Positions 2,604 through 43,939 of a stretch of DNA of 64,000 nt are shown in pieces. Source of the stretch: Actinomycetes bacterium (GTDB lineage Bacteria; Actinomycetota; Acidimicrobiia; Acidimicrobiales; JAJYXR01). The notes beneath the pieces are model-generated. The model worked only from the letters and a program-made list of their open reading frames with translations, did not search any database and was not told the DNA's origin. Positions within the stretch are counted from its first letter, which is position 1, and each line of letters begins with the position of its first letter. Location: the NCBI GenBank assembly GCA_021801795.1, contig JAJYXR010000001.1:988-64987 (forward strand). Reading direction: 5' to 3'. Made by a program: the position numbers and the translations under genes.

Positions 2604-3256
2604 CGCGGCCGGAACGCGAGACACCCCCAGGCGGGGTGGGCGCCACCATCAGGGGACTCGACGAGCGTGAGAGGCTTCTCGGGTTCGTCGCGGCCGGCAT
2701 GGCAGCCATCCTGTGGCTGATAGTGACCGTGCCCAGCCTGGTGTCACCGCCCAAGCACCCTAAGCCCCACCAGCTCGACAGCACCCAGGTCGCCATCTAC
2801 CTACTCGTGGGGCTGGTGCTGGCAGGCCTGATCCTCGTCGCCACGATCGTGAGGAGACGGGCCTTCCTCGGCTTCGCTGTCCTCTTCACCGGGGCCTCCT
2901 TCGGCGGAGACATCCTGCTGGCACTCCCCTTCTGGGCACTCGGCGGATGGCTGCTCTGGCGTGCATTCGGCGTCCAACGGGCGGCATCTGCACAGCGACT
3001 GGCAGCGGCCCGCGAGAGGGCTCAGGCCGGTGGTGCAAGAGACGGCTCGACGGGCTCTCGACCCGGCTGGCGCAAGTGGGCGAGCACACCCGAGCGCGCC
3101 GGGACCCTCGGCGGATCCACCTGGCAGGCCGAGAGCGGCCCGCGCAGACCGCCGACGCCCTCCAAGCGCTACACCCCTCCGAAGCCACCCCCCCGGCGCC
3201 CGTCGAGCCAAGGACGCTCGGCGCGCACTCGGCACGACCGTGATGCGGAGCCTTGA
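2600..3256 (+). CDS. Hypothetical integral membrane protein with Arg/Pro-rich C-terminal tail
   Basis: About 4 hydrophobic helices (AAGMAAILWLIVTV, VAIYLLVGLVLAGLILVATIV, FLGFAVLFTGASFGG, ALPFWALGGWLLW). GTG 2600 overlaps the upstream stop (GTGA). The part of track ORF 2027..3256 upstream of 2600 overlaps the VOC gene out of frame and is discounted. Confidence 0.5.
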   Translation: MTRPERETPPGGVGATIRGLDERERLLGFVAAGMAAILWLIVTVPSLVSPPKHPKPHQLDSTQVAIYLLVGLVLAGLILVATIVRRRAFLGFAVLFTGASFGGDILLALPFWALGGWLLWRAFGVQRAASAQRLAAARERAQAGGARDGSTGSRPGWRKWASTPERAGTLGGSTWQAESGPRRPPTPSKRYTPPKPPPRRPSSQGRSARTRHDRDAEP

Positions 3257-3337
3257 TTCGCCATTGCCGGGGAAGCGAGGAGGGGGACGAGCTGGCAGCC
3301 ACGGCGGCTAGTGGTCCGATGCCTCATGGCGCCACCC

Positions 3338-3955
3338 TCAGGGCTCCATCACGAGAGCAGATCTGAGCAGCCGGAGGATCTCGGCACGCCTGCGCACGAG
3401 GGAGCGTGCGGTCGGCTCCTCCCCGAAGGCACGAAGCACCTCCACCTCGGCTGCCATGCCGATCACCGTGGAGTAGATGGCCAGCAGCAGTAGCCGCGGC
3501 TCGTGCCGGGTCATCTGGCCCGCGTCCATCTCGGCCTCGAGGAAGCTCGAGGCTCGCTCCACCAGAGGATCGAGTGCCGCCACCAGCCTGGTAGCCGCAG
3601 GGGCCCCGAGCCGGCTGGCCTCCCGCACCAGGCCGATGAGCTCCGGCTTGGCCGCTGCGAGCCTGAAGACAGAGCGCACCACCGCGTCCACCCGGGACCA
3701 GCCGGACCCCGCGCGCGCCAGGGCTGCCTCCAGGGTCTCCGACAGCTCGCCGGCTGCCCTGTCGATGACGGCCTCCAGCAGCGCCTCCTTCGAGGGGAAC
3801 CAGTAGAGGATGCTCTGCTTCCTCAGCCCCAGGGTCTCGCCCAGAGAGTCCAGGGAGGTGGCCTCGTAACCCCTAGTGCCGAAGGAGTAGAGGGCGGCGT
3901 CGAGGATCTTCGCCGGCGTGCCGTCGCCGCCCGTGTTCGCGCTAGCACCGCTCAC
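3338..3955 (-). CDS. TetR/AcrR family transcriptional regulator
   Basis: N-terminal HTH ILDAALYSFGTRGYEATSLDSLGETLGLRKQSILYWFPSKEALL. The gene is divergent from the lipid operon. GTG start at 3955. Confidence 0.9.
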   Translation of the reverse strand: MSGASANTGGDGTPAKILDAALYSFGTRGYEATSLDSLGETLGLRKQSILYWFPSKEALLEAVIDRAAGELSETLEAALARAGSGWSRVDAVVRSVFRLAAAKPELIGLVREASRLGAPAATRLVAALDPLVERASSFLEAEMDAGQMTRHEPRLLLLAIYSTVIGMAAEVEVLRAFGEEPTARSLVRRRAEILRLLRSALVMEP

Positions 3956-3969
3956 CTACCATATGGTAG
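3956..3969. promoter_or_regulatory. Perfect 14-bp palindrome CTACCATATGGTAG in the 23-bp TetR / reductase intergenic gap; probable TetR operator
   Basis: Read directly. It fills most of the gap between the GTG of the TetR gene (3955) and the ATG of the reductase gene (3979). It contains TACCAT (TANNNT-like) on both strands. Confidence 0.55.
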
Positions 3970-3978
3970 ACCAGTTGG

Positions 3979-6474
3979 ATGCGAGGCGACGCCGCAGGCC
4001 CGGCGGAGACACCTGCCGGACCCATCGAGTCAGTTGCCACAGCGCTGGCGGGAAAGCGCATCCTCGTGACCGGAGCGACAGGATTTCTCGGCACCGCTCT
4101 GGTGGAACGCCTGGTGAGGTCGATCCCCTCCTGCCAGGTAGTCGTCCTGGTGCGACCGACCAGGCGCTCCGACGCGTCGGACCGCCTGAAGCGCGAGATC
4201 CTGCGGAACGACTGCTTCGACAGGCTACGCGAGGAGCTCGGGACGAGCTTCGACGGCGTGATGGCCGGTCGCGTCACGGCGCTCGCCGGTGATGTGTCGA
4301 CAGACGGGCTGGGACTCGAGAGCGCGGGGATCGACACGCTGGCCACCTGCGACGTGGTGGTCCACTCCGCAGCATCGGTAGCCTTCGACGCCCCATTCGA
4401 CACAGCGGTCGAGGTGAACCTGCTCGGGCCCTCACGGGTGGCAGGCGCCATAGAGGCTGCGGCCACCAGGCGCGCCGAGCTCAGTCCTGGATCGGCAGCC
4501 ACCCATCTCGTCTCCGTGTCCACGGCGTACGTCGCGGGCACCCACCAGGGCTTCGCGTCGGAGACCCTCGCATCGGAGGCTGTCAGGACCTCTCCGAGCT
4601 CCCGCACCCACTCCACGGTGACGACCGAGGTCGACATCCCCGCCGAGATCGCCGCCGCCAGGCGCCTCAGGGCCGACCTTCAGGCAGAGTCCAGACGCGC
4701 CGCCCGCCTGCGGGCCTTCGAGGCTGCTGCACGCCGCGAGCTGGGCGCGGCCGGGCCTCATCTCGTCGCGGAGAAAGCCGAGAAGCTTCGGGAGGACTGG
4801 GTCCACGCTCAGCTGGTCGCCGAGGGCAGGTCGCGCTCCCAGGCCCTCGGATGGCCAGATGCCTATGCCTTCACGAAGGCCCTCGGCGAGCGGCTACTCG
4901 TCGGGGACCACCCGACGGTTCCCCTCAGCGTCGTTCGCCCGTCGATCATCGAGTCCGCCCTAGCCGAGCCCAGACCGGGCTGGATACGTGGATTTCGCAT
5001 GGCCGAGCCGATCATCGTCTCCTACGCCAGGGGCCTGCTGGCCGAGTTCCCCGGCATCCGAGAAGGCGTTACCGACGTCATACCTGTCGACCTGGTCGTG
5101 GCAGCCATCATCGCCGTCGCCGCGGCTGGACCGGATCCCGCTGGCCCCGGTGTCTACCAGGTCGCCTCGGGAGTGCGGAACCCCCTTCGCTACGGCCACC
5201 TGGTGGACCTGGTCCACAGCTGGTTCAGCGACCACCCGCTCTACGACTCGAGGGGCCAGCCCATAGTGGTCCCCCAGTGGTCATTCCCCGGGCGAGGGCG
5301 CGTCCAGCGCCAGCTGAGACGAGCGACCAAGATGCTGTCCTACACCGAGCGGCTGCTCGGAGCACTTCCCGTGCGCGGCGCGGCGGCCAGGGTCGAGGCG
5401 AGGGTCGAGGAGCGCCACGGCCAGGCCGAGCGCGCCCTTGGCTACGTGGAGCTCTACGGCGCATACACCGAGACCGAGGCGCTCTTCAGCGTCGACCGGC
5501 TCTTGGAGCTGGCCTCCAGGCTCTCGCCCGAGGACAGGCAGGCCTTCAGCTTCGATCCTGCTGTGATCGACTGGGATCGCTACGTCCATGACATCCACCT
5601 GCCCTCGGTGGTGGAGCATGCCCGGGTGCGGACCAGCCCAGGGCGCTCCGCCATCAGGAGCAGGACCGAGCGCGGCCTGAAGGCCGTGCTCGCTCCGGAG
5701 CGCCAGCTCGCCGTGTTCGACCTTGAGAACACCTTGATCGCCTCGAACGTGGTCGAGTCCTATGCATGGCTGGCCACCCGGCATCTCACTCCCCTCGAAC
5801 GAGCGCGCCTGGCTACCAGGCTGGCCCTCGAGGCTCCTTCCCTGGCGGCGCTCGACAGGAGGGACCGCGGGGACTTCCTGCGCACCTTCTACCGCCGCTA
5901 CGAAGGCGCGCCGGCTGAGTTGCTGCGGGCAGATGCCCAGGAGATGTTCGCCGACCTGCTGATGGCCAAGTCCTTTCCCGCTGGGATTGCCAGGCTGCGC
6001 CACCACAGGGGCCTCGGTCAGCGCACCGTGCTGATCACAGGTGCGCTCGACTTCGTCGTGGAGCCGCTCCGGCCTCTCTTCGACGAGGTCATATGTGCCG
6101 AGCTCGGGACCACCCCCGACGGGCGCTTCACCGGTCAGCTCCAGCGCGTCCCTCCGACCGGCGAGGCCAGGGCCCTGGTCCTCGCCGAGTACGCGAAGCG
6201 GGAGGGAATCGACCTGGCGGAGGCTGTGGCATATGCGGACTCGGCCTCGGATCTGGCCCTCCTGGAGGCCGTGGGGTTCCCCGTCGCGGTGAACCCCGAA
6301 GCCCGCCTCGCCGCCATCGCTAGACGCCGCGGCTGGCATGTGGAGCGCTGGCGGGCCTCGGCGAAGGGAATCCGCAGTCCCCTGCCCTTCGCCGCGCGCG
6401 AGATCGCAGACCCCGGCGCATGTCGGGCTGCGATCTACTCCCGCGGGGCCGACCGGCAGGAGCCTGTCGGATGA
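3979..6474 (+). CDS. Fatty acyl-CoA/ACP reductase (extended SDR, male-sterility type) fused to a C-terminal HAD-IB phosphatase-like domain
   Basis: ILVTGATGFLGTALVERL Rossmann motif and YAFTKALGERLL (YxxxK) in the N-terminal ~420 aa. The C-terminal domain has LAVFDLENTLIASNV (HAD motif I DxE/DxT) and YADSASDLALLEAVGFPVAVNP (HAD motif IV region). Confidence 0.8.
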   Translation: MRGDAAGPAETPAGPIESVATALAGKRILVTGATGFLGTALVERLVRSIPSCQVVVLVRPTRRSDASDRLKREILRNDCFDRLREELGTSFDGVMAGRVTALAGDVSTDGLGLESAGIDTLATCDVVVHSAASVAFDAPFDTAVEVNLLGPSRVAGAIEAAATRRAELSPGSAATHLVSVSTAYVAGTHQGFASETLASEAVRTSPSSRTHSTVTTEVDIPAEIAAARRLRADLQAESRRAARLRAFEAAARRELGAAGPHLVAEKAEKLREDWVHAQLVAEGRSRSQALGWPDAYAFTKALGERLLVGDHPTVPLSVVRPSIIESALAEPRPGWIRGFRMAEPIIVSYARGLLAEFPGIREGVTDVIPVDLVVAAIIAVAAAGPDPAGPGVYQVASGVRNPLRYGHLVDLVHSWFSDHPLYDSRGQPIVVPQWSFPGRGRVQRQLRRATKMLSYTERLLGALPVRGAAARVEARVEERHGQAERALGYVELYGAYTETEALFSVDRLLELASRLSPEDRQAFSFDPAVIDWDRYVHDIHLPSVVEHARVRTSPGRSAIRSRTERGLKAVLAPERQLAVFDLENTLIASNVVESYAWLATRHLTPLERARLATRLALEAPSLAALDRRDRGDFLRTFYRRYEGAPAELLRADAQEMFADLLMAKSFPAGIARLRHHRGLGQRTVLITGALDFVVEPLRPLFDEVICAELGTTPDGRFTGQLQRVPPTGEARALVLAEYAKREGIDLAEAVAYADSASDLALLEAVGFPVAVNPEARLAAIARRRGWHVERWRASAKGIRSPLPFAAREIADPGACRAAIYSRGADRQEPVG

Positions 6475-7712
6475 AGGCGCTGGTCTTCGAGAGAAGCCTT
6501 CCCCGCTTCGCGGCAGCCCGGGTAGCCCATGTGCTGGGTAGCTCCAGCCGCGCTGCATCGCTCGGACCCCTTCGCCTGGTGGACACCGATCCGCCGGAGC
6601 TCCCGGCAGATGGCTGGGTGCATGTCCGGCCACTCGTCTCCGGAATCTGCGGATCGGACCTGGCCACCATCGAGGGTGCCAGCTCGCGCTACTTCGAGCC
6701 GATGGTGAGCTTCCCCTTCATCCCCGGCCACGAGGTGGTCGGGGTCCTCGAGGACGTAGCGAAGCCAGACGATCGCAGCCCGGCGCTGACGGCTGGGTCG
6801 CGAGTGGTCCTGGAACCGGTGCTCGGGTGTGCAGCCCGCGGCATCGAACCGCCCTGCAGCCCGTGCGCCCGGGGCGAGACCGGCAGCTGCCAGAACCTCG
6901 CGTTCGGTCACCTCTCCCCTGGCCTTCAGACCGGGTTCTGTGCCGACACGGGCGGTGGATGGAGCACCGGGACCTTAGTGGCCCATCTGAGCCAGCTCCA
7001 CGAGGTGCCGGCTTCGATGAGCGACGAGGAAGCAGTCATGGTGGAACCGGCAGCCTGTGCCCTGCACGCGGTGCTGGGTGCCGGCATCGCACCCGGATCC
7101 CAGGTGGCAGTCCTCGGAGCGGGAACGCTCGGCCTGCTGGTGGTCGCGGCCATCAGGCAGGTCTGCGATCCCTCCAGCCTGCTCGTCGGTGCGCGTTATC
7201 ACCACCAGCGCGTAATGGCCCTCGAGCTCGGTGCCGACCAGGCACTCGAGCCCGAGGAGCTGGCACGGGCCCTCAGGAGGAGGAGCCGCTCGATGCTCCT
7301 CGGGGTCGATCTGACCGGCGGGGCTGACGTCGTGATCGACTGCGTCGCCAGCAGCGACTCCATCCGCAGCTGCCTGGCGATGGTGAGGCCGAGGGGCAGG
7401 GTGGTCCTACTCGGGATGCCTGCGAAGCAGACCCTGGACCTCACTCCGCTGTGGCACCGCGAGATCTCCCTCAGCGGTGCCTACGCATACGGAACCGAGA
7501 ACGTCGGGGACGGACGCCGCCGTACCTTCGAGCTGGCGATGGAGCTGACCCGCAGCGCTCGTCTAGGCCGCCTGGTGAGCGCCCGCTATCCCATCGACCG
7601 CTTCGAGGAGGCCATCGCGCACGCGGCCTCGGCTGGACGCCGGGGCTCGGTGAAGGTGGTCTTCGACCTGGCAGCCCGACCCCCACGATCATCGAAAGGA
7701 CGCTCGGCATGA
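6471..7712 (+). CDS. Zinc-dependent medium-chain alcohol dehydrogenase/reductase
   Basis: GICGSDL, GHEVVG, a structural-zinc Cys cluster (CAARGIEPPCSPCARGETGSC) and VAVLGAGTLGLL. ATG 6471 overlaps the upstream stop (ATGA). Confidence 0.85.
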   Translation: MKALVFERSLPRFAAARVAHVLGSSSRAASLGPLRLVDTDPPELPADGWVHVRPLVSGICGSDLATIEGASSRYFEPMVSFPFIPGHEVVGVLEDVAKPDDRSPALTAGSRVVLEPVLGCAARGIEPPCSPCARGETGSCQNLAFGHLSPGLQTGFCADTGGGWSTGTLVAHLSQLHEVPASMSDEEAVMVEPAACALHAVLGAGIAPGSQVAVLGAGTLGLLVVAAIRQVCDPSSLLVGARYHHQRVMALELGADQALEPEELARALRRRSRSMLLGVDLTGGADVVIDCVASSDSIRSCLAMVRPRGRVVLLGMPAKQTLDLTPLWHREISLSGAYAYGTENVGDGRRRTFELAMELTRSARLGRLVSARYPIDRFEEAIAHAASAGRRGSVKVVFDLAARPPRSSKGRSA

Positions 7713-9298
7713 GTCCTCGACCCGGTTTCGTACTCGAGGTGGAGCGGTCCACTCCACCAACCCTCTTCTGGCATGGGGAGGGGTTCCGTCTCGAGAGGCT
7801 TCCAGCCGGTCGCAGCCGGGTCATATACGCCCCCGAGCCCGCCCGGGCACTCGAGGACCCCAGGGCGGCCATCCGCCATGCCCTCGACCACCCCCTCGGC
7901 GACTCCGAGCCGCTCAGGGCCTACCTGAGGCCCGGCATGCGCCTGACGGTGGCCTTCGACGACGTCTCCCTCCCGCTCCCCCCCATGCAGGCGCCCGACG
8001 TACGCCAGCTGGTGATCGAGGAGGTTCTAGAGCTCGCAGCAGAGGCCGGCGTCGACGACGTGGTGCTCATCGCAGCGCTCGCCCTCCATAGGCGCATGAC
8101 CGATGCCGAGCTGCTCCATGCCCTTGGCCGGCGCGTATACGACTCGTTCTCCCCCGCTGGTCGCCTGCTCCAGCACGATGCGGAGGACGCCTCGAACCTG
8201 GTCCACCTCGGCTGCACCGACGAGGGCGAGGACGTGGAGATATCGAAGCGGGCGGCCACCTCGGACCTGATCGTCTACGTGAACATAAACCTGGTCGCCA
8301 TGGACGGCGGGCACAAGAGCGTTGCCACCGGCCTGGCCAGCTATAGAAGCATCCGCCACCACCATAACCCCGACACCATGCGCCGTAGCCGTTCATTCAT
8401 GGACATGCACCACTCGGAGCTCCACAGCTCGAACTGGCGAATGGGACGGCTCATCGCGGCATCCGGTATACGGGTCTTCCAGATAGAGACCACCCTGAAC
8501 AACGACACCTTCCCCGACAGCTTCGGCTTCCTCCAGCGCCGGGAGTGGGAATGGAGCCTGCGCGACCGTGCTTCGTTCCTGGCATCCTCGAGTGCCCTCG
8601 AACGCCTCCCGGCATCGCTCAGCCGTTCCATCTTCCACTCGATCCGATCCCCGCACGCGATGTCGTCGGTCCAGGCAGGCGAGGTGGAGGCCGTCCACGC
8701 TCGGACCCTCGAGAACGTCTACGCGCAGCAACTGGTGGAGGTGGAGGGCCAGTCCGACGTGCTCACGATGGGCCTTCCCTACATATGCCCCTATAACGTG
8801 AACTCGATCATGAACCCGGTGCTGGTGGCCTGCCTCGGGCTCGGCTACTTCTTCAACCTCTACCGCGGCAAACCACTCGTGCGCGAGGGGGGGGTGGTCA
8901 TCATGAGCCACCCGACCCGCTCAGAGTTCCACCCCGGCCACCACCCGAGCTACATAGACTTCTTCGAGCACGTGCTGGCCGAGAGCACCGATCCCGTCGA
9001 GGTGGCGAAGCACGAGGAGGCATACGCGACCGATCCCTGGTACGTGCATCTCTACCGCACGGCCCATGCCTACCACGGTGTCCATCCCTTCTACATGTGG
9101 TACTGGTGCGCGCACGCGCTCGACCATCTCTCCGCGGTGATAGTGGTGGGAGGCGAACGCGACGCGGTGAGGCGGCTCGGCTTCCGCCCGGCATCCACCC
9201 TCTCGGATGCCCTGGAGATGGCCTCCGACGTGGTAGGCCCCAGCCCCACCATCACCCACATGCGCACTCCCCCGCTCCTCCTGGCAGGCGTGATATGA
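7709..9298 (+). CDS. LarA-like (lactate racemase N-terminal domain / DUF2088-type) protein
   Basis: The pattern VAFDDVSLPLP ... IAALALHRRMTDAEL ... DLIVYVNINLVAMDGGHKSV resembles the LarA N-terminal domain as I recall it. ATG 7709 overlaps the upstream stop (ATGA). Confidence 0.55.
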   Translation: MSPRPGFVLEVERSTPPTLFWHGEGFRLERLPAGRSRVIYAPEPARALEDPRAAIRHALDHPLGDSEPLRAYLRPGMRLTVAFDDVSLPLPPMQAPDVRQLVIEEVLELAAEAGVDDVVLIAALALHRRMTDAELLHALGRRVYDSFSPAGRLLQHDAEDASNLVHLGCTDEGEDVEISKRAATSDLIVYVNINLVAMDGGHKSVATGLASYRSIRHHHNPDTMRRSRSFMDMHHSELHSSNWRMGRLIAASGIRVFQIETTLNNDTFPDSFGFLQRREWEWSLRDRASFLASSSALERLPASLSRSIFHSIRSPHAMSSVQAGEVEAVHARTLENVYAQQLVEVEGQSDVLTMGLPYICPYNVNSIMNPVLVACLGLGYFFNLYRGKPLVREGGVVIMSHPTRSEFHPGHHPSYIDFFEHVLAESTDPVEVAKHEEAYATDPWYVHLYRTAHAYHGVHPFYMWYWCAHALDHLSAVIVVGGERDAVRRLGFRPASTLSDALEMASDVVGPSPTITHMRTPPLLLAGVI

Positions 9299-10278
9299 CG
9301 CCCGCCTCGCGTGCCCTCGCCAGGGTCCGGCGCATAGTGCCAGACGGATTCCCCTGGCAGGCTGCCAGCTGGCCTGCCTCCATCGAGCGCGCCGCACCAG
9401 AACGCGGCCTCGGCGTGGACTACGACACCTCCTGGTCGCGGCGCTACCCGGTACGGCTGGCCAGGGCCGTGCTTCTGGACCACATGGCCACGCCTGCGGT
9501 GAGGGCGCTCGCCACCCCTAGGGTCGTCGGTGCCGAGGTGCTCGACGGGCTGGACCCACCGGCCATCTTCGTGGCGAACCACGCCAGCCACCTCGACACA
9601 GCGCTCATCCTCTCGGTGCTGCCACCTCCGATGCGACACCGCACCGTGGTGGCAGCGGCTGCCGACCACTTCTTCGACCGCCGCATGAAGGCTCATCTGT
9701 GGTCCTTCTGCCTGGCCGCGATCCCCATAGAGCGTCACCGGGTCAACAGGAGGTCTGCGGAGCTCGCCGCGGGACTCCTGGAGGAGGGTTGGAACCTCGT
9801 GATCTTCCCAGAAGGTGGCCGCACACCCGACGGCTGGCAGCAGGAGTTCCGCGGTGGGGCCGCCTACCTGTCGGTGAGGACCGGCAGGCCCATGGTGCCG
9901 GTGCACCTCGACAGGACCTGGCGGCTGCTACCGAAGGGTGGCCGGCGGATCAGGCGTGCCGGGGTACAGGTGACCTTCGGTCTGCCGATCCTGGCGGCAC
10001 CCGGTGAGGATGCCCGCCGCCTCTCGGCGCGCGTCGAGCAGGCGGTCGCCGTGCTGGGCGACGAGTCCGCCTCGGACTGGTGGTCTGCCCGCAGGCGCCA
10101 TGCGGCTGGGGCCACGCCCTCTGCACGTGGACCAGACTGGTCTTCCTGGCGCCGTGCCTGGGAGCTGACCTCCCCTAGTCGAGACCACCCGAGCAGATCC
10201 GGTGGAGCCGCTACAGGCCCACCTTCAGGTGATCTGCGCTGGGCGCTCACCAGGCAGAGAAAGCCATCCGGCGCCTGA
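9295..10278 (+). CDS. Lysophospholipid / 1-acyl-sn-glycerol-3-phosphate acyltransferase family (PlsC-type)
   Basis: HX4D motif in FVANHASHLD and block III in IFPEGGRTPDG. ATG 9295 overlaps the upstream stop (ATGA). The 3' end overlaps the convergent murT-gatD ORF by 32 bp. Confidence 0.8.
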   Translation: MTPASRALARVRRIVPDGFPWQAASWPASIERAAPERGLGVDYDTSWSRRYPVRLARAVLLDHMATPAVRALATPRVVGAEVLDGLDPPAIFVANHASHLDTALILSVLPPPMRHRTVVAAAADHFFDRRMKAHLWSFCLAAIPIERHRVNRRSAELAAGLLEEGWNLVIFPEGGRTPDGWQQEFRGGAAYLSVRTGRPMVPVHLDRTWRLLPKGGRRIRRAGVQVTFGLPILAAPGEDARRLSARVEQAVAVLGDESASDWWSARRRHAAGATPSARGPDWSSWRRAWELTSPSRDHPSRSGGAATGPPSGDLRWALTRQRKPSGA

Positions 10279-12466
10279 GGCGCTGGAGCGACCTGACGCG
10301 CTCGGCTCTGAGGGACTCGATCTCCCCCTCCTCGCCTGGCCCCAGGGGTGGAAGCGTGATACCGGTGGCGACCTCGATCAGGTGGTCCGCGAGCCTGGGG
10401 TTGCGAGCCAGGACCGGTCCGTGCATGTAGGTGCCGACGATGCTCCTGGTGAGAACCCCGTCGACGCGGGCCCGCTCGGAGTTCCCAGTTCCCCGAAGGA
10501 CCCTCGCCAGAGGCGATACGCCCGTGCCTAGCTCGGTGGCACCAGCATGGTTCTCGAACCCGCTCAGGAGGCCGAGACCGGCTGGGATCCCCTCCGAGAG
10601 GATCTCGCCTACGGCGCGCCTGGTCATCGGGCGATCCGTGCTGGCGTCCACCAGGCCTGCACCAGCCAGCCGCCGTCCTGTGGGGTCCGAGAAGTCCGTA
10701 CCGATTATCTGCAGACCGGCACATACGGCCAGCACCACCGCTCCCCTCTCCAGGGGACCCGCCAGCGCGCCCAGATGGCCGGCGGCCTCAGCCTGTGGAC
10801 CGTCCTCGCCACCTCCGATGCAGTACACATCCCCCGACAGCGGCAGGGGATCATCGAAGCGCGCCATGACGAGCTCGGCCCCCATCTCGCGCCAGAGCGC
10901 CCGGGCCGCGAGCACGATCCCGTTGCCGGTGTCACCGTATGTCCCGAGCAGTTCCGGGTAGACCACCACCACCCGAAGCCTCGACTCCCCCCCCGCTCTG
11001 CCATGGATAGCGGGTCGAGCGCTGCCGGTGGATTCTCGGCTCGCCGTAGCTGGCACCTCGATTGGCTGGCTGGCCGGACACCCGGTCCACGACGGCCTGT
11101 GCGGGTGCATCTCGGGCGGCTCGCCTGGAAGCGGGCTTCGCGTCCTGGAGAACCCCCGGCGGAGGCTGCCTGGCATAAGCCGTGGCCCGGCATGCCGCGA
11201 TGCAAGTGACCTGCGGAGCTGTTGGAAGGCGGTGTAGTTGCCGATGAAGACGGCATCTCGCGCCTCCAGACGAGACAGGGCCGCGACCTGGTCGGGGATC
11301 ACCGCGTGCTCCACGCCGGCATAGAGCAGCCTCACGCCCAGATCCAAGCACCTGGCTCCCGTAGCGATAACCCGCCGTCCTTCGAGTCTCTCGAAGGCCA
11401 CGTCCCAGAGCCACGACGGGTCCCGGCCGTCGGCCACCTCTGCATTGATCCCTATGGCGATAGGCCGGTCGTCGCCCACTACGAGGTCGAGCAGCTCGGC
11501 CCAACCAGCCGGGTTCTTCGCCAGCATGAGCTCCAGGCTGGTCCCACCAACGTCTACCCGCTGGAAGCGTCCCTCGACCTGGTCGACGACGGCCATCCGC
11601 TCCAGAGCTCCGGGCAGCTCGACCCCGAGCTCCGATGCAGCCACCGCTGCCATCGCAGCGTTCGCGCGGTTGAAGCCTCCGGGGATGGCCAGGTCCAGAC
11701 GGAACCGACGACCGTCGGCGCAGACCAACTCCTCTCCGTCCACCCACCACCCGAGAGCTGGACGCTCGAACCCGCACCTGCATCCCCAGCCGTCCTCACC
11801 TACCTCGACCAGACCTCCGCAGACTGGGCAGCCGGCCGCGTCGGAACGCCAGCCGAGCCCGGTCCCCACCCAGGTAACCCTCCCCGCGGCCGATGCGGCG
11901 TAGACCACCAGCGGGTCGTCGCCGTTGGCCACGAGAGCGGGGGCATCTGGCCCCTCCAGCCATGCCCGCCACCGCCTGGCCATCATCCTCACCTCGCTGG
12001 TCCTGTCCAGCTGGTCGCGCGAGAGGTTCAGCAGGACCGCCAGGCGCGCAGCACTCTCGGCAGCGACCCCAGGGAGGTATGCCTCGTCCACCTCCAGCAC
12101 ACCAGTCGTTCCAGGAGCGGACCCGGCCAGCGCGGCCACGATCCCGGCCGGCAGGTTCGAGCCCGACCGCGACGAGACGACTCGCTCGCCACCTGAGAGA
12201 GCGACAGCGAGGAGCCGGGTGGTGGTCGTCTTACCGTTCGTCCCGCTCACCAGCACGATCTTCCTGCCCCGCGACAGCTCTGCGAGCAGGTTAGGAGCCA
12301 CCAGGAGACCGGCACGGCCGCCTATCACCGATCCACCTCCTAAGCCCAGACGCCTGGACAGACCCGCCAGGGCGCGGCTGGACGCCAGGGCCACCTCGGA
12401 CCGGAAGCCGAGCTTCGGGCCCGCGTAGCCGACCGCGGTATCGTCCATGGCGCCGGACGCGCTCAC
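10247..12466 (-). CDS. murT-gatD: Lipid II isoglutaminyl synthase, MurT (Mur-ligase-like) and GatD (class-I glutamine amidotransferase) encoded as one continuous ORF
   Basis: MurT part: P-loop VSGTNGKTTTT, Cys ribbon CPVCGG...CRCG, and a C-terminal FIGNYTAFQQL. GatD part: RVVVVYPELLGTYGDTGN, catalytic-Cys context VCAGLQIIG, and GTYMHGPVLARNP. About 77 aa of low-complexity linker (about 10975-11205) has no stop. GTG/ATG start at 12466 or 12448. Confidence 0.8.
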   Translation of the reverse strand: MSASGAMDDTAVGYAGPKLGFRSEVALASSRALAGLSRRLGLGGGSVIGGRAGLLVAPNLLAELSRGRKIVLVSGTNGKTTTTRLLAVALSGGERVVSSRSGSNLPAGIVAALAGSAPGTTGVLEVDEAYLPGVAAESAARLAVLLNLSRDQLDRTSEVRMMARRWRAWLEGPDAPALVANGDDPLVVYAASAAGRVTWVGTGLGWRSDAAGCPVCGGLVEVGEDGWGCRCGFERPALGWWVDGEELVCADGRRFRLDLAIPGGFNRANAAMAAVAASELGVELPGALERMAVVDQVEGRFQRVDVGGTSLELMLAKNPAGWAELLDLVVGDDRPIAIGINAEVADGRDPSWLWDVAFERLEGRRVIATGARCLDLGVRLLYAGVEHAVIPDQVAALSRLEARDAVFIGNYTAFQQLRRSLASRHAGPRLMPGSLRRGFSRTRSPLPGEPPEMHPHRPSWTGCPASQPIEVPATASRESTGSARPAIHGRAGGESRLRVVVVYPELLGTYGDTGNGIVLAARALWREMGAELVMARFDDPLPLSGDVYCIGGGEDGPQAEAAGHLGALAGPLERGAVVLAVCAGLQIIGTDFSDPTGRRLAGAGLVDASTDRPMTRRAVGEILSEGIPAGLGLLSGFENHAGATELGTGVSPLARVLRGTGNSERARVDGVLTRSIVGTYMHGPVLARNPRLADHLIEVATGITLPPLGPGEEGEIESLRAERVRSLQRLRRRMAFSAW

Positions 12467-13857
12467 CGCTTGGAAGGTGCCCCAGGTGCTTCGGCACGGG
12501 CCAGCTCGCCGGCCGAGGGAACCCGCCTCCGGCGGGCCTCTTCGGGCAGCAGCCCCGCGATGGCGTGCATGAGCCGATCTGTGCCTGCTCGTGCATCACC
12601 GCGTCCGAACACCATCGGCTCACCGACCCTCACCGTCACCTCGGGACGCCCCTGCCAGCCTGGCAGCGAGGGCAGCCTGGCGGACCTGGGCCATACATGC
12701 TCGGTTCCCCAGATCCCGACAGGGACCACAGGGGCTCCAGTGGCCGCGGCAAGCCTCACCGCCCCCGTGCGGCCCTTCAGGGCGGGATCGAAGAATGCCT
12801 TGCCTCGGGGTATCGTCCCCTGGGGAAGGATCACGACCATCTCGCCTGCCCTGAGCACCCTGCCTGCGACGGCCAGCGCCTCGCCAGGGCTCGAGTCGCG
12901 ATCGACCGGGATGCCCCCGAGTGCTCTGGCCAGGGTTCCCACCACTGGCGCATCGAAGAGCTCCTTCTTGGCCAGGAAGCGTGCCGGACGCCCGATCTCT
13001 GCCACCAGCATTGCCAGGGCGACCACGTCGAAGTAGCTCCGGTGGTTCGCCGCCAGCACCACGGGGCCGCTCGATGGCACCCTGGCTGCCCCATCCACCT
13101 TCACGCTGGCCAGCGCCATTAGCTCTGGCCTCACCAGCGGTCTGAGGAGGTGGTAGAGCTCGCGGCCTGCGACCGATGCGACGCCTCCAGGCCGATCCCA
13201 GCTCTCGATGGGCCACCGCCTCAGCGCGCAGAGAACCCTGAGGCGCGCATCGGGGTTCACCGCGTGAGGCTTGCCGACCGCACCGAGAAGTGGGGCGTCG
13301 AAGACGCTGTCGGAGTAGGCCGACGATCCCACCATGGATACCTCGTTCGTGGCTGACCAGAGCCGGACAGCCCTCAGCTTGCCCGGACCCCACACGAGCC
13401 CTCCGTCCAGCCTCCCCGTAAGGGTGCCGCCGTCGGCTTCGTACCTGGTGGCCACCACGGCGTCGAAGCCCAGCTCGGCCGCGAAGGGCTCGACCAGCTC
13501 TGCAGGCGTCGTGGTGGAGAGGACGACCATGCGCCCCGAGCGCCTCTCGTCTTCGATGGCCGCCAGGGCGTAGGGACGGAGCCTCTCGGCGAGTCCCTCC
13601 ACGGCCGACTCCGCTGCCCGGCGCACTCCATCCAGAGGCCAGCCACGTGTGAAGGCGGCCGCCATGCGCACCATGGCGACGAAGGGAAGGGTCTCGCCCA
13701 GGGACTCATAAGCCCGGTAGAAGGCTCCTTCGAGCGGGAGCTTCGCTCCAGGCTGGATCACGCCCGCGGCCACCAGGGCGTCCGAGATGACAGGGCCGCT
13801 GGCCCCGGACAGGAGCGTCCTGTCGAGATCGAAGAATGCCGCTCGCCGCTCGGGCAT
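12463..13857 (-). CDS. plsC: Bifunctional HAD-IB hydrolase / 1-acylglycerol-3-phosphate acyltransferase (PlsC) fusion
   Basis: N-terminal FFDLDRTLL (HAD motif I) and GSSAYSDSVFDAPLLGAVGKPHAVNP. C-terminal LAANHRSYFD (HX4D) and ILPQGT. The architecture matches M. tuberculosis Rv2483c as I recall it. I use the start at ATG 13857 (MPERRAAFFDLD). The stop overlaps the murT start (GTGA). Confidence 0.85.
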   Translation of the reverse strand: MPERRAAFFDLDRTLLSGASGPVISDALVAAGVIQPGAKLPLEGAFYRAYESLGETLPFVAMVRMAAAFTRGWPLDGVRRAAESAVEGLAERLRPYALAAIEDERRSGRMVVLSTTTPAELVEPFAAELGFDAVVATRYEADGGTLTGRLDGGLVWGPGKLRAVRLWSATNEVSMVGSSAYSDSVFDAPLLGAVGKPHAVNPDARLRVLCALRRWPIESWDRPGGVASVAGRELYHLLRPLVRPELMALASVKVDGAARVPSSGPVVLAANHRSYFDVVALAMLVAEIGRPARFLAKKELFDAPVVGTLARALGGIPVDRDSSPGEALAVAGRVLRAGEMVVILPQGTIPRGKAFFDPALKGRTGAVRLAAATGAPVVPVGIWGTEHVWPRSARLPSLPGWQGRPEVTVRVGEPMVFGRGDARAGTDRLMHAIAGLLPEEARRRRVPSAGELARAEAPGAPSKR

Positions 13858-14027
13858 GACAGGGACCTTACCGGTTCCGAACCGTTCCGGGCGCCTACGC
13901 GACGAAGGGACCGGCGGGGGGGCGACCGATCCCTTCGTAGTGACTCGCCAGGAAGTGGAGGGGGAAGTCCTGATCCTGCGGTCTGGATACATGATGCCTC
14001 ATCTCGCGCCATCAGTCAAACAGGTAT

Positions 14028-18127: not shown

Positions 18128-18892
18128 TCAGGAAACTACCGCGCCGTGGCGCCCTTCCCCTGACGCGAAGCGCCTGGCCCCTTCGAGAGTCTCCCCCGAA
18201 CGGATCACCTCGAGGCCGCCGGCAGCCTCCATTCTGAGTGCTTCTGCGAGGCCGAGTCCCCACTGCTCGTAGGACGAACGCCTGTCTGCACGCATGCAGA
18301 GCTGCGGGAAGGCCGCTATCTGGAGCGCGAGCTCCATGGCAGCATCGAGAGCAGAGCCCTCGGGCACCACCCGGTTCGCGAGACCGAATGCCAGTGCCTC
18401 CTCGGCGTCTACGGCCCTGCCGGTGAGGATCATGTCGAGCGCCCTGGAGTGGCCAATGAGCCGGCTGAGGCGCACCGTCCCGCCGTCGACCAGTGGCACC
18501 CCGAAGCGCCGGCAGTAGACCCCGAACACTGCGCCCCTACCAGCCACACGCAGGTCGCACCAGAGCGCCAGCTCGAGCCCGCCCGCCACGGCATGGCCCT
18601 CCACGGCAGCGATCACCGGTTTCGCTAGCAGCCTCCTCGTCGGCCCCAGGGGTCCGTCCGAGCCTGGCTCCACACGACCGGCACTACCGCCTGCCACAGC
18701 CTTCAGGTCTGCTCCAGAGCAGAAGGTCCCTCCAGCGCCGGTGAGCACACCCACCCTGAGGCTCTCGTCTGCCTCCAGCCTCTCGAAGGCAGCAGTGAGG
18801 GCGGTGGCTGTGGCTACATCTATGGCGTTCTTCGTCTCAGGCCTGTCGATGGTGACGAGCAGGACTGGGTCGTGGGCCTCTACCCGAACCAT
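18128..18892 (-). CDS. Enoyl-CoA hydratase/isomerase (crotonase) family protein
   Basis: LLVTIDRPETKNAID...VLTGAGGTFCSGADLK...KPVIAAVEGHAVAGGLELALWCDL is a classical crotonase signature. Confidence 0.9.
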   Translation of the reverse strand: MVRVEAHDPVLLVTIDRPETKNAIDVATATALTAAFERLEADESLRVGVLTGAGGTFCSGADLKAVAGGSAGRVEPGSDGPLGPTRRLLAKPVIAAVEGHAVAGGLELALWCDLRVAGRGAVFGVYCRRFGVPLVDGGTVRLSRLIGHSRALDMILTGRAVDAEEALAFGLANRVVPEGSALDAAMELALQIAAFPQLCMRADRRSSYEQWGLGLAEALRMEAAGGLEVIRSGETLEGARRFASGEGRHGAVVS

Positions 18893-21384
18893 CCGACTAC
18901 GTCGACTATCACGTTCACCGAGCCGGCATTGTTGAACACGTCGATCTCACCGGAGGACCCGAGCTTCACGACCACCATGTTCGCGACTGTCTCGCCGGCG
19001 TGCCAGTTCAGGTCCGAGGAGGAGGGGACCGAGCCCCCAGCCGGGTACGCGGCCAGGAAGCTGCCGGCGGTGGTACCGGTGACCGTCAGGTTCACCACCA
19101 CCCCGGTAGCCGATGAAGGCACTCCGCCCACGCCGGCGACCGGGATCGTGAGGCTGCCCGCCGGCCCCACCGTGTGGCCAGTGCAGGCATCCGTGAGCCC
19201 TGAGAGGCTGGTGGGCCTAGTGTCGCAGATCCTCACGGGAGCGCTGGGGGTGAAGGAGGCACCGGTGGACGCGTAGTAGCCGTTCACATCTACGATCACG
19301 TCGGTGGTGCCGAAGGCGTTGTATATGGCCACCTGGCCGTTAGTCCCCACGGGCACGACCACCCGGTTCGGAACCGCGGCACCCAGGGAGAAGTTCACGC
19401 TAGAGGAAGCCGGCAGGGTGGCTCCGGCAGGGTAGACCGTGAGGAACCCCCCGTGGGTGCCGTCCACCGCTGTGACGTTCAGGACCACCGCGGACACCCC
19501 GGACGAGGGCACGTTCCCCACCCCGGTAACGGTGACCAGCGCGGTGCCTGCCGGGCCGGGAGCCGCCAGGGACTGGTTGGCCGACGGTATGTTCTCGCTC
19601 GCGCAGTAAGGCGGAGGCGATGCGCCTGCACATCGAGTGTCGGCGATGCGGGTAGGCGGGAGCGGGTTGAAGAGGCTGCCCCCCGTCCCAGATGCGTCGA
19701 CGTAGCCCTCCACGTCCACCGCCACGTTCGTGGTGCCGAAGGCGTTGTATATGGCCACCTGGCCCGAGCTCCCGATGGTGACGTCCACGAGGTTCGCGAC
19801 GATGTCTCCAGGCGAGAAGTTGATGCTGGAGGCCACCGGCGTGGCGGTGCCAGACGGGTAGACCGTGAGGAACCCGCCGTGGGTCGGCTGGATGGCGGTG
19901 ACGTTCAGAAGCACCGACTCCGCACCTGAGGGCACGGCGTCGGTTCCAGATCCCGTGCCTGTCACCTGGACGTTTATCGTCTGGCCCGCCCCAGGCGCCT
20001 GCAGGGAAGTGTTGGAGGACGGAAGGTTCTCGTTGGCACAGAATGCAGGCGTGGGACTCGCCCCGCATCGCGTGTCGGCGATCCGGTAGGGGGTCACCGG
20101 AAAGTAGGAGCCGCTGGCCACGTAGACGAAGCCGTCGAGTGAGGTCGCAGGGGTCGTACCGCCCGGCGTCACCACCGTCACGCCCACCAGGCCCGGGGTC
20201 GTGGCGGCCGGCACGGTCGCGGTCACCTCCGTGCTCGACACGACCGTCACGTTCGTCGCGGCCACAGAGCCGAAGTCGACAGCCGTGGCGCCGGACAGGG
20301 AGGTGCCGTCTATCGTCACCGTCCCGCCACCGGCGAGCGGCGACGACGCCGGTGTGACCGAGGTGACCGTCGGCGGGGGCATGACCAGGTTCAGCGTGGC
20401 GGTGTCGACAGCGTCGACGGTAGCGGTTAGGCCCTCTTCGGAGACCTGCTCGCTGCCGTTCAGCTGCACGTAGCAGGTCGTGCACGGGGCCGGAAGGCCC
20501 GATGGCACGGTGAGCGATCCCGAGAGGTCACCCGTGGCGCTCTCCGTGGCGGAAGCTCCGGTGGCCGTCACGCACTGTCCACTCGTGGCATCGCATACCT
20601 CGATGGTCCCGGTGATGCTGCCACCGGCCACCGGCGAGACCGGCCAGTTGGTTCCGCTTACGCTCACCGTGGCTCCCGCGTACGCGGTCGTGGGACTCAC
20701 GCTGAAGGTGGGCTGGATCTGGCCGGAGTACTCCACGGGTGCGACGGCCACGGCGGTAGGAGAGAAGCTGGAGGTGATCCCGACGAGCGCCACTGCACAG
20801 ATGACCCCAGCCTTCTGCTCGGCAGCCGTCGGCGGGCAGGGGTAGTTAGCAGCGTCCTGGTTCGCGGGGTTCCCCGCGGAGTCGGTTCCAGAGTCCGATG
20901 AGCCGATGTTCCCGCTCGGAACGGAGTACGGGTAGCTGAGGGTCCCGTTCGAGTAGTACTTCGAGGTCTGCTCCACGACGAACTCGCTGCATCCCACCGG
21001 CACGTTATGACCGAACACGCTGTAGGTGGGCTGGGTCGGGTCGCTGTTGCACTCGATGGGGACGAAGTAGGTGTCGCTGGAGGCATCCCAGTTAGTGCTG
21101 GTGATGGTCGCAGACGTGGTCCCGCTCGTGCTCAGGCCGGTGCTCGGGGAGACCTGGATCGACGGGGTCCCCGCGCTCGTGAAGACAGCCTGGCCGATGG
21201 TGGGCGCAGCCGCACCGGCAGGAAGAGCCCCACCAGCCAGGGAGGCCAGTCCGGTGCCCAGCGTCAGCGCAACCGCGCCGACGAGCGCCACCCCTACCCT
21301 CGGGCCGGCCGACCAGGTGCCCGAACGCCGGCGGCCGCGAGGCCCGCCTGCTCGACCAGAACATCCCCTGCTGCTAGTGCTCAT
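18880..21384 (-). CDS. Large secreted protein: signal peptide, Cys-rich N-terminal domains, IPT/TIG-like Ig domain, then three copies of a ~125-135-aa 'DTRC' module
   Basis: Signal-like N-terminus (RRRSGTWSAGPRVGVALVGAVALTLGTGLASLAGG). IPT-like PTVTSVTPASSPLAGGGTVTIDGTSLSGATAVDFG...TVVTPGGTT (about 20119-20376). Three modules lie at about 19699-20106, 19273-19674 and 18883-19254. Each has RI[AC]DTR..C, V.GVG.VPSSG..AVVLNVT, GGFLTVYP, NF/NW..G, GQVAIYN and VDV.GY. Confidence 0.7.
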   Translation of the reverse strand: MSTSSRGCSGRAGGPRGRRRSGTWSAGPRVGVALVGAVALTLGTGLASLAGGALPAGAAAPTIGQAVFTSAGTPSIQVSPSTGLSTSGTTSATITSTNWDASSDTYFVPIECNSDPTQPTYSVFGHNVPVGCSEFVVEQTSKYYSNGTLSYPYSVPSGNIGSSDSGTDSAGNPANQDAANYPCPPTAAEQKAGVICAVALVGITSSFSPTAVAVAPVEYSGQIQPTFSVSPTTAYAGATVSVSGTNWPVSPVAGGSITGTIEVCDATSGQCVTATGASATESATGDLSGSLTVPSGLPAPCTTCYVQLNGSEQVSEEGLTATVDAVDTATLNLVMPPPTVTSVTPASSPLAGGGTVTIDGTSLSGATAVDFGSVAATNVTVVSSTEVTATVPAATTPGLVGVTVVTPGGTTPATSLDGFVYVASGSYFPVTPYRIADTRCGASPTPAFCANENLPSSNTSLQAPGAGQTINVQVTGTGSGTDAVPSGAESVLLNVTAIQPTHGGFLTVYPSGTATPVASSINFSPGDIVANLVDVTIGSSGQVAIYNAFGTTNVAVDVEGYVDASGTGGSLFNPLPPTRIADTRCAGASPPPYCASENIPSANQSLAAPGPAGTALVTVTGVGNVPSSGVSAVVLNVTAVDGTHGGFLTVYPAGATLPASSSVNFSLGAAVPNRVVVPVGTNGQVAIYNAFGTTDVIVDVNGYYASTGASFTPSAPVRICDTRPTSLSGLTDACTGHTVGPAGSLTIPVAGVGGVPSSATGVVVNLTVTGTTAGSFLAAYPAGGSVPSSSDLNWHAGETVANMVVVKLGSSGEIDVFNNAGSVNVIVDVVGWFG

Positions 21385-41167: not shown

Positions 41168-41292
41168 TTCGCAGAACGCCTTTCTGTCCAGGTTAGACGG
41201 ACCCCGAATACCCCGATGGCCCGGTTGCTCTCTGAAGACTGCCATTCCCGCCCAGCCAGAGTACTCGACCTGGCCGGACTTCTTCACGATAT

Positions 41293-41350
41293 GGTCGGGC
41301 AGAGCCTGGGCTGACCAGCTGAGCCAGTGCATGTCCAGCCCTGCCCGACC
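41293..41350 (-). terminator. Long hairpin (10-bp perfect arms GGTCGGGCAG / CTGCCCGACC, 38-nt loop, arms extendable imperfectly) 12 nt downstream of the 846-aa ORF stop
   Basis: Read directly. No U-tract follows, so terminator function is uncertain. Confidence 0.25.
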
Positions 41351-41362
41351 GCTCGTGCTATG

Positions 41363-43774: not shown

Positions 43775-43939
43775 GATACCCCCCCTGTGGTGCGGCGGCT
43801 TCCCCCTTGCCCGAGCCCGCACCCGGTTCGCGGCAGGGAGCACACCGGCAAGGCGCCAGATGTGCCTGTCCGACACCCTAGACCGGCACTGTCCCGATGT
43901 CAACGCGAGTGGGTGACGGAGACGCCACCGACGGCGTGA

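Follow-up and report, generated by a model that had tools for sequence, protein, structure and literature searches.

The elb ether-lipid cluster of Myxococcus xanthus (Lorenzen et al. 2014; MIBiG BGC0000871) encodes an epimerase-type dehydrogenase of 326 amino acids (aa), a HAD-family protein of 221 aa, a Lar_N-domain protein of 536 aa, a 1470-aa protein and another epimerase-type dehydrogenase, of 342 aa; the 1470-aa protein combines the domains NAD_binding_4, Sterile, AMP-binding, PP-binding and Acyltransferase. The genes elbA to elbE are MXAN_1531 to MXAN_1527 (PMC13012113), so MXAN_1529 is ElbC. Disruption of elbD in M. xanthus strongly reduced the alkyl and vinyl ether lipids (reviewed in PMC9131029); ElbE was also needed for ether lipids and ElbA was not, and iso-15:0 aldehyde depended on elbD and no fatty alcohol did. 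In the ether-lipid literature ElbC is described as a protein of unknown function (PMC9131029). Here we compare with this cluster a four-gene operon and its divergent TetR-family regulator gene, which lie at positions 3338 to 10278 of a 64,000-nucleotide (nt) stretch of an Acidimicrobiales genome (assembly GCA_021801795.1, contig JAJYXR010000001.1, positions 988 to 64,987, forward strand). The whole 64-kb stretch is called the window below.

The family of ElbC has also been described from the side of nickel enzymes. Desguin et al. 2020 (PMC7583248) split the homologs of the lactate racemase LarA into 25 groups. Their group 14 comprises proteins of Frankia, Kribbella, Nocardioides, Rubrobacter, Acidimicrobium and Ilumatobacter, of which 88% are linked to COG0204 (PlsC), COG0560 (HAD) and COG1063 (Zn dehydrogenase) and 50% to COG3320 (thioester reductase) (PMC7583248, Table S1). 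Group 15, which contains the myxobacterial proteins including MXAN_1529, is linked to COG0560, COG0451 and COG1022, and group 16 to COG0204 and COG0560 (PMC7583248). In the nickel-pincer literature groups 14 and 15 stand as uncharacterised single-histidine LarA homologs whose PlsC and HAD context is unexplained.

By sequence comparison, the operon in the window is an elb cluster in a rearranged actinobacterial form and not an operon of unknown type. From its gene content and relatives, this TetR-repressed form appears likely to make lipids based on 1-O-alkyl-sn-glycerol-3-phosphate (alkyl/acyl lipids) from ordinary fatty-acyl thioesters. The features of the locus are as follows (E, expectation value; bp, base pairs):

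3338 to 3955, minus strand: TetR-family regulator, 205 aa (TetR_N, E 9.8e-12), divergent from the operon
3956 to 3969, strand not applicable: candidate TetR operator, the perfect 14-bp palindrome CTACCATATGGTAG, between the TetR and reductase start codons
3979 to 6474, plus strand: reductase-HAD fusion, 831 aa (NAD_binding_4, Sterile, HAD), counterpart of the ElbD N-terminal reductase plus ElbB
4066 to 5595, plus strand: reductase module of the fusion, with NAD_binding_4 at aa 30-377 and Sterile/FAR_C at aa 488-539
5707 to 6342, plus strand: HAD-IB module of the fusion (TIGR01490), aa 577-788, ElbB homolog
6471 to 7712, plus strand: Zn-dependent medium-chain dehydrogenase of the polyol/threonine dehydrogenase type, 413 aa (ADH_N, ADH_zinc_N)
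7709 to 9298, plus strand: LarA-family protein, ElbC ortholog, 529 aa (Lar_N, NF052592)
9295 to 10278, plus strand: PlsC/AGPAT-superfamily acyltransferase, 327 aa (PF01553), homolog of the ElbD C-terminal domain

The operon proteins were compared with those of M. xanthus by BLASTP, which gave 28% identity over 555 aa between the reductase and ElbD residues 5-539 (E 8.5e-49), 37% over 214 aa between the HAD module and ElbB (E 1.7e-37), and 49% over 523 aa between the LarA-type protein and MXAN_1529/ElbC (E 2e-179). The acyltransferase was 35% identical to ElbD residues 1266-1389 over 125 aa (E 8e-20), and the blocks ANHxSHLD and FPEG(G/T)R are common to both proteins, as are NAD_binding_4 and Sterile to the reductase and ElbD. 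The HAD module and ElbB both match TIGR01490, the window module barely above the cutoff (98.9 against 98.3 bits). The initial annotation of this DNA had seen a loose likeness to ElbD; the likeness is real homology and was understated, with four of five domains homologous to ElbB, ElbC and both ends of ElbD.

The two clusters differ in the way these parts are joined. In Myxococcota the order is HAD protein, LarA-type protein, a reductase-adenylation-carrier-acyltransferase fusion and a short-chain dehydrogenase, and elbB, elbC, elbD and elbE follow one another in this way in two more loci of group 15; in Actinomycetota it is reductase-HAD fusion, Zn dehydrogenase, LarA-type protein and acyltransferase. 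A reductase, an HAD-IB protein, a LarA-type protein and an AGPAT-type acyltransferase in one operon, together with a second NAD(P)-type oxidoreductase, are common to elb and the window operon. The HAD protein is separate and the acyltransferase fused within ElbD in Myxococcus, whereas in the window the acyltransferase stands alone and the HAD domain is joined to the reductase; the window operon, unlike Myxococcus elb, also has an attached TetR gene.

To follow the gene order across species, one genome per species was scanned with an alignment of the LarA-type protein, which found a relative in at least 588 species genomes, and the Acidimicrobiia loci discussed below, which carry the operon, are the best 80 of these; loci of other phyla were reached through protein searches and contig look-ups. 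All of these best 80 were from Acidimicrobiia, with 68-81% identity in the LarA-type protein, and many came from metagenome-assembled genomes (MAGs) of bog, palsa and soil. In each of the 61 Acidimicrobiia loci that had all parts, reductase-HAD, dehydrogenase, LarA-type protein and acyltransferase were colinear on one strand, so the four-gene order that the initial annotation had proposed to look for is indeed conserved. Median identity was 62% for the reductase, 65% for the HAD module, 58% for the dehydrogenase and 55% for the acyltransferase, while the LarA-type protein, with a median of 75%, was the most conserved protein of the operon; catalytic motifs of all four enzymes were kept in 65-80 orthologs. 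The same gene set was found in locus L084 and, with PlsY in place of the PlsC-type enzyme, in Rubrobacter radiotolerans. In a Candidatus Microthrix MAG (locus L074, 7657-12570) there is no Zn dehydrogenase gene and the reductase-HAD gene directly abuts the LarA-type gene. The initial annotation had been aware of no characterised pathway with this composition, but Desguin et al. 2020 had already tabulated the gene association itself, without a function, for group 14 (PMC7583248, Table S1).

In the reductase-HAD fusion, NAD_binding_4 was matched with E 1.5e-53 and HAD with E 1.2e-26, and the Sterile domain scored 35.1 bits against a cutoff of 35.4, with the precomputed Pfam matches of public contigs listing Sterile unmarked. 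The best match among solved structures for the reductase was the fatty acyl-CoA (coenzyme A) reductase 7eoz (E 3.9e-63), and the Rossmann motif GATGFLG and the YxxxK motif YAFTK were kept in 65 orthologs. Fusion of reductase and HAD was also found in Rubrobacter (752 aa) and in L084 (780 aa). HAD motif I reads FDLENT (5734-5751, aa 586-591), in which the general acid/base at Asp+2 is replaced by Glu, and motif IV reads DSASD. Of 69 Acidimicrobiia orthologs, 67 have this DxE form of motif I, as does L084; ElbB and the Rubrobacter protein have FDVDGT (DxD).

The nearest solved chains of the Zn dehydrogenase were sorbitol, threonine, idonate and ketose dehydrogenases or reductases. Its nearest relatives, the polyol, threonine and ketose dehydrogenases, have secondary alcohols and ketones as substrates. 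The catalytic Zn ligands, the structural Zn cysteines and the GxGxxG site are all present (GICGSD, GHEVVG, EPAAC, CSPCARGETGSC and GAGTLG), and the Zn-ligand motifs GICGSD, GHE and EPxAC were kept in 72 orthologs; all equivalog models scored far below cutoff on this protein. None of the Elb proteins is homologous to it, and its slot is filled in Myxococcus by the short-chain dehydrogenase ElbE, which is closest to families of 3-beta-hydroxysteroid-dehydrogenase-like lipid ketoreductases, HpnA and OleD among them. This exchange of one ketoreductase for a non-homologous one suggests that the pathway has a keto intermediate.

The acyltransferase matched PF01553 with E 3e-17, and its HX4D block (NHASHLD, aa 95-101) and PEGG block (FPEGGR, aa 171-176) are intact; NHxSHxD and (F/Y)PEGGR were kept in 78-80 orthologs. 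On TIGR00530 it scored 46.2 bits against a cutoff of 102.95, and its top NCBIfam match was the acyltransferase domain of Aas-type enzymes. The window has a second protein of this kind, a 509-aa fusion of HAD-IB (canonical FDLDRT) and PlsC (12463-13992, minus strand) about 2 kb downstream, which is presumably the housekeeping lysophosphatidate acyltransferase. The operon acyltransferase is closer to ElbD, by the match given above, than to this fusion (29%, E 1e-9), and the operon HAD module is likewise closer to ElbB than to the fusion. HAD-IB and acyltransferase are therefore paired twice within 10 kb, once as a fusion and once in an operon, and the fusion was kept downstream of the operon in 32 of the 80 loci.

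The LarA-type protein matched Lar_N with E 5e-38 and NF052592 (LarAH14/15/16) with 868.8 bits against a cutoff of 740, which ElbC and the Rubrobacter LarA-type protein also exceed. Its AlphaFold model (pLDDT, predicted local distance difference test, 93.5; pTM, predicted template modelling score, 0.92) was searched with Foldseek, and all 19 matches at E <= 0.001 were LarA-family chains or relatives. The best of them was 9q3k (E 2.2e-34, TM scores 0.78/0.85), a single-histidine LarA homolog of Streptococcus plurextorum loaded with its cofactor, nickel-pincer nucleotide (NPN), and the best sequence match to solved structures also fell in the single-histidine LarA homolog family (phmmer, E 2.5e-39). 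Residue conservation was determined in 234 sequences from Acidimicrobiia and Myxococcota, with Lactobacillus plantarum LarA as the numbering reference:

LarA D72 (cofactor ribose binding): D85, invariant in the 234 sequences
LarA H108 (catalytic histidine): H127, invariant in the 234 sequences
LarA K184 (covalent cofactor tether): K203, invariant in the 234 sequences
LarA H200 (nickel ligand): H219, invariant in the 234 sequences
LarA H174 (second catalytic histidine): N194, an invariant Asn, as in group 17
LarA R75 (carboxylate/phosphate binding): L88, with Leu, Val or Met across the family

The ligand-site residues His115, Tyr307 and His401 of LarA_Sp correspond to the invariant H127, Y362 and H459, and His306 to Pro361; the K298 position is Asn in the table of Desguin et al. 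2020 (PMC7583248). From this residue pattern the protein looks built for the nickel-pincer cofactor and for hydride abstraction by a single base, not for carboxylate binding or racemisation, and it is probably an NPN enzyme with one catalytic histidine. Single-histidine LarA enzymes have been proposed to shift a hydride within the substrate or to work one-way (PMC7583248; PMC12611868), and a different protein scaffold with the same cofactor carries out intermolecular hydride transfer (PMC13524815), so non-racemase chemistry has precedent. No match of the family was found on plasmids, and there were no informative fusions with other domains among 150 representatives. One 947-aa protein (P0417), with 36% identity to the LarA-type protein, has a chlorophyll a/b-binding domain at its C-terminus; this is probably an algal gene model that arose by merging, and it hints at ElbC-like proteins in photosynthetic eukaryotes. 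In members of group 16 (FRAAL3757 of Frankia alni, Francci3_2278, MLP_28440 of Microlunatus and a Propionibacterium protein) the tether lysine is lost, and often the catalytic histidine too; these may be pseudoenzymes.

The cluster of R. radiotolerans consists of PlsY, a reductase-HAD fusion, a Zn dehydrogenase and a LarA-type protein, the last three in the same order as in the window and the proteins with 37-55% identity to those of the window. It differs from the window in that PlsY lies upstream in place of a PlsC-type enzyme downstream, that HAD motif I is DxD, and that no TetR gene is adjacent. The Rubrobacter PlsY is an equivalog match (186 bits, cutoff 137). The known substrate of PlsY is glycerol-3-phosphate, and the unrelated PlsY in the place of the PlsC-type enzyme points to a glycerol-3-phosphate backbone. 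A 2023 paper on Rubrobacter lipids reportedly proposed a putative 1-O-alkyl glycerol phosphate operon resembling elb. The window operon is probably of the same type as the Rubrobacter cluster. Five Rubrobacterales species are reported to be dominated by mixed ether/ester lipids (Sinninghe Damste et al. 2023; Syst Appl Microbiol 46:126404). The lipid reading of the initial annotation appears largely right, and of the classes that it had in view the ether class is the best supported, by elb homology and by Rubrobacter, with the diol and wax classes less favoured.

The open reading frames (ORFs) and strands of the TetR gene and the four operon genes are as the initial annotation described them, and its family assignments, including the intact HX4D and PEGG blocks, agree with the Pfam and NCBIfam domain matches. 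Its three ATGA start/stop overlaps are likewise present, with the junction letters gATGAa (6471-6474), cATGAg (7709-7712) and tATGAc (9295-9298). Public contigs with an identical LarA-type protein also have gene calls of 831, 413, 529 and 327 aa, so the coupled starts are not an arbitrary choice. Of the 29 same-strand gene pairs in the window, 8 overlap by 4 nt, and of the 26 pairs that lie outside the operon, 5 do. Orthologous loci allow an ATGA-type overlap at the same three junctions in 56/72, 43/78 and 41/79 cases, respectively. Because such overlaps are frequent in this genome, alone they mark a tight operon and nothing stranger, and the idea that they are remarkable in themselves was rejected. 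They support the translational coupling that had been proposed, but not the stoichiometric co-expression proposed with it, which an overlap cannot show.

The start codons of the TetR and reductase genes are separated by 23 bp, and the palindrome CTACCATATGGTAG between them is unique in the window even with 3 mismatches allowed. At least 24 of 44 orthologous loci have variants of TCTACCAnnTGGTAGA at this place between the genes. Among the 59 loci with enough flank, 37 have a TetR ortholog (median identity 71%) that is divergent from the reductase gene and at most 1.5 kb upstream of it. The palindrome conserved across orthologous loci is thus a candidate TetR operator, and this phylogenetic footprint backs the earlier description of the operon as TetR-guarded. 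TetR would bind the palindrome and hold the operon off until a lipid-related signal comes. A promoter and terminator scan of positions 3200-10600 gave no match, which is a weak test for a 70% GC actinobacterium.

In the pathway that we propose, the reductase module would convert acyl-CoA or acyl-ACP (acyl carrier protein) to a fatty aldehyde and possibly a fatty alcohol, and since, unlike ElbD, this module comes without adenylation and carrier domains, it would have to use the acyl pool of the cell. The LarA-type protein, with its tethered nickel-pincer cofactor and single histidine, may act as a redox-neutral hydride shuttle at C2 of glycerol phosphate, which would let the alkyl chain become ether-linked at sn-1; both of these steps are speculative. 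The Zn dehydrogenase (ElbE in Myxococcus) would reduce a keto intermediate back to the C2 alcohol, the PlsC-type acyltransferase (PlsY in Rubrobacter) would attach the ester-linked chain to glycerol phosphate, and the HAD-IB module would act on some phosphate ester. The order of the LarA-type, Zn dehydrogenase and acyltransferase steps is as speculative as the chemistry of the LarA-type protein. What the comparisons establish is the homology, the synteny and the conserved catalytic residues; the ether-lipid product is inferred.

More tentatively, the ElbC-type LarA homologs of groups 14 and 15 could be the missing ether-bond-forming enzymes of an aerobic pathway independent of AGPS, using NPN for a "borrowed hydride" reaction, an idea that we put forward as possible although we would not count on it. 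In such a route, the hemiacetal of a fatty aldehyde and glycerol-3-phosphate would lose water, and the hydride of glycerol C2 would reduce C1' to give 1-O-alkyl-dihydroxyacetone phosphate. The Zn dehydrogenase or ElbE would then reduce the keto group, and the acyltransferase would add the second chain. The aldehyde seen in Myxococcus fits this model, as do the presence of only one histidine, the requirement for a ketoreductase and the lack of AGPS. AGPS carries out an acyl/alkyl exchange on acyl-dihydroxyacetone phosphate (acyl-DHAP), and in a variant of the model an AGPS-like exchange with a fatty alcohol would take place on transiently C2-oxidised 1-acyl-glycerol-3-phosphate; a start from 1-acyl-glycerol-3-phosphate fits the PlsY of Rubrobacter.

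Several points weigh against the reading of the operon as an ether-lipid elb form with a catalytic LarA-type protein. By Pfam, neither the operon proteins nor the flanking genes have an AMP-binding or PP-binding domain, and ElbD has both; the operon also has no homolog of the short-chain dehydrogenases ElbE and ElbA, with the Zn medium-chain dehydrogenase in their place. The pathway is therefore not identical in detail to that of Myxococcus. The DxE form of HAD motif I is an unusual variant, and a Pfam scan of essentially all credible ORFs found no larB, larC or larE in the 64-kb window. On the genetic side, the review PMC9131029 reports no elbC disruption, and the phenotype of an elbB insertion was ascribed to polar effects; some elb-like clusters of sponge symbionts contain homologs of elbD and elbB only, and Pontiella has elbD homologs but showed no ether lipids. 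The purified LarAH14 protein of Frankia was inactive in seven 2-hydroxyacid reactions, and group 16 relatives without the tether lysine still stand beside PlsC and HAD (PMC7583248). Our literature search also turned up no lipid analysis of any Acidimicrobiia carrier.

In a rival reading, ether lipids are made but some other catalyst forms the ether bond, the LarA-type protein acting instead as a scaffold, as a chaperone for a hydrophobic intermediate or as an isomerase in a side step, with the ether bond coming from the reductase, the acyltransferase and an unlinked enzyme such as an AGPS homolog. The group 16 proteins, which keep their PlsC and HAD neighbours after loss of the tether lysine and catalytic histidine, fit a non-catalytic role at least in that group, and the clusters without elbC, the AGPS route that M. 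xanthus also has, and the lack of a known activity for any group 14 or 15 protein point the same way. But disruption of AGPS in M. xanthus had a minor effect only, and in the LarA-type proteins of Acidimicrobiia, Myxococcota and Rubrobacter the cofactor-holding residues and the one catalytic histidine are invariant. Together with the highest conservation in the operon (a median of 75% against 55-65% for the others), this is not expected of a mere scaffold, and we regard a non-catalytic LarA-type protein as unlikely. A product other than an ether lipid appears more improbable still, be it wax esters or free fatty alcohols, long-chain diol lipids, or a phospholipid made via an acyl-DHAP route. 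Wax esters are in principle within reach of a fatty-acyl reductase paired with an acyltransferase, a polyol-type dehydrogenase beside an acyltransferase recalls the acyl-DHAP route, and LarA relatives act beside a hydroxyl group as a diol route would require; yet the acyltransferase is of the PlsC superfamily and not a wax-synthase/DGAT, with a true PlsY in its place in Rubrobacter, four domains are homologous to a cluster whose disruption lowers ether lipids, and the Rubrobacterales have the cluster and are rich in ether lipids.

We give very little credence to the view that the LarA-type protein is a soluble isomerase of 2-hydroxyacids or sugar acids that stands among lipid genes by an accident of conserved order. 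NF052592 is named "NPN-dependent hydroxyacid isomerase", and all characterised LarA homologs use 2-hydroxyacids (PMC7583248, PMC11770544). Against this, R75 is replaced by Leu88, the K298 position by Asn (in Desguin's table) and the second catalytic histidine by Asn194, LarAH14 did not act in the hydroxyacid reactions, and the link with reductase, HAD and acyltransferase persists over two phyla, through domain fusions and gene replacements. A lactate or 2-hydroxyacid racemase in particular was rejected as a candidate, with one catalytic histidine left, the carboxylate binder gone and LarAH14 inactive. The elb form making alkyl/acyl ether lipids is the reading that we consider most likely.

Soils, peat and sediments widely contain non-isoprenoid alkyl glycerol ethers, which geochemists use as biomarkers; which aerobic bacteria make them, and how the ether arises in the ElbD route, is not yet settled. 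Within the searchable literature corpus we found no link of the LarA/lactate racemase family to ether lipids, and the ether-lipid and nickel-pincer literatures do not cite each other there; the present locus connects both. What appears new within this corpus is the assignment of ElbC and its actinobacterial orthologs to the nickel-pincer-type LarA homologs. This link makes the open questions of both fields directly testable and offers a concrete candidate for the ether-forming step. If ElbC-type proteins do form the ether bond by means of NPN, the alkyl ether lipids of Myxococcota, Rubrobacteria, Acidimicrobiia and other Actinomycetota would be nickel-dependent, and the single-histidine LarA subfamilies would have a first function. 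ElbD is split in this operon and the identity of its reductase part, about 28%, is below the 30% threshold of one ElbD screen, so such screens likely miss the operon.

The remaining window is core chromosome, with a pyrimidine operon and metK, coaBC, gmk, efp and nusB; its GC content is about 69-70%, and third-position GC sets the genes apart. The proteins closest to those encoded here belong to named Acidimicrobiales MAGs. The 3' end of the acyltransferase gene overlaps by 32 nt a convergent gene (10247-12466, minus strand) for a 739-aa fusion of MurT (Mur ligase middle domain, MurT_C) and GatD (CobB/CobQ-type amidotransferase), subunits of lipid II isoglutaminyl synthase that NCBIfam models as separate proteins. 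At 18880-21384 (minus strand) an 834-aa ORF has a single IPT/TIG domain only, and at 21445-25596 (minus strand) there is a 1383-aa P-type ATPase whose domains are recognisable from about residue 626, with no Pfam match in its N-terminal extension of about 600 aa. The 589-aa product of 25697-27466 (minus strand) is a strong match for the beta subunit of N,N-dimethylformamidase, in its C-terminal domain (E 6e-98). A 1349-aa ORF at 35160-39209 (plus strand) holds two branched-chain-amino-acid-type permease and two ABC ATPase domains, that is, a whole Liv-type transporter; the start predicted for it lies 142 nt inside the upstream periplasmic-binding-protein ORF and may be mis-set. Three consecutive large ORFs at 40289-46336 (minus strand; 347, 846 and 798 aa) had no Pfam match. 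In 41363-43903 and 18880-21384 first-position GC is unusually low and second-position GC high for this genome.

Other systems are comparable with the operon in product or in parts. The anaerobic Ger (glycerol ester reductase) and PlsA/PlsR likewise give bacterial sn-1 alkyl or alkenyl ethers, but they belong to unrelated, oxygen-sensitive families that convert a pre-formed ester, and the operon has no homolog of them. The peroxisomal-type aerobic pathway (FAR1, GNPAT, AGPS and acyl/alkyl-DHAP reductase), which is also present in M. xanthus as MXAN_1676-1674, is more similar, since it shares with the window a fatty-acyl reductase, a glycerone- or glycerol-phosphate acyltransferase and a ketoreductase; unlike in that pathway, the window operon has no AGPS flavoenzyme, the LarA-type protein stands in the ether-forming slot, and an HAD domain is added. 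The closest solved structures are those of the group 17 single-histidine LarA homologs of S. plurextorum and Blautia wexlerae (PDB 9q3k, 9q2u and 9q3j; PMC12611868), which like the window protein have Asn for the second catalytic histidine and keep the tether lysine, the nickel-binding histidine and the ribose-binding aspartate. They are 20-23% identical to it and have Lys or Arg at the R75 position, where the window protein has Leu88, and their gene context is glycolytic (triose-phosphate isomerase, aldolase), whereas that of the window protein is lipid.

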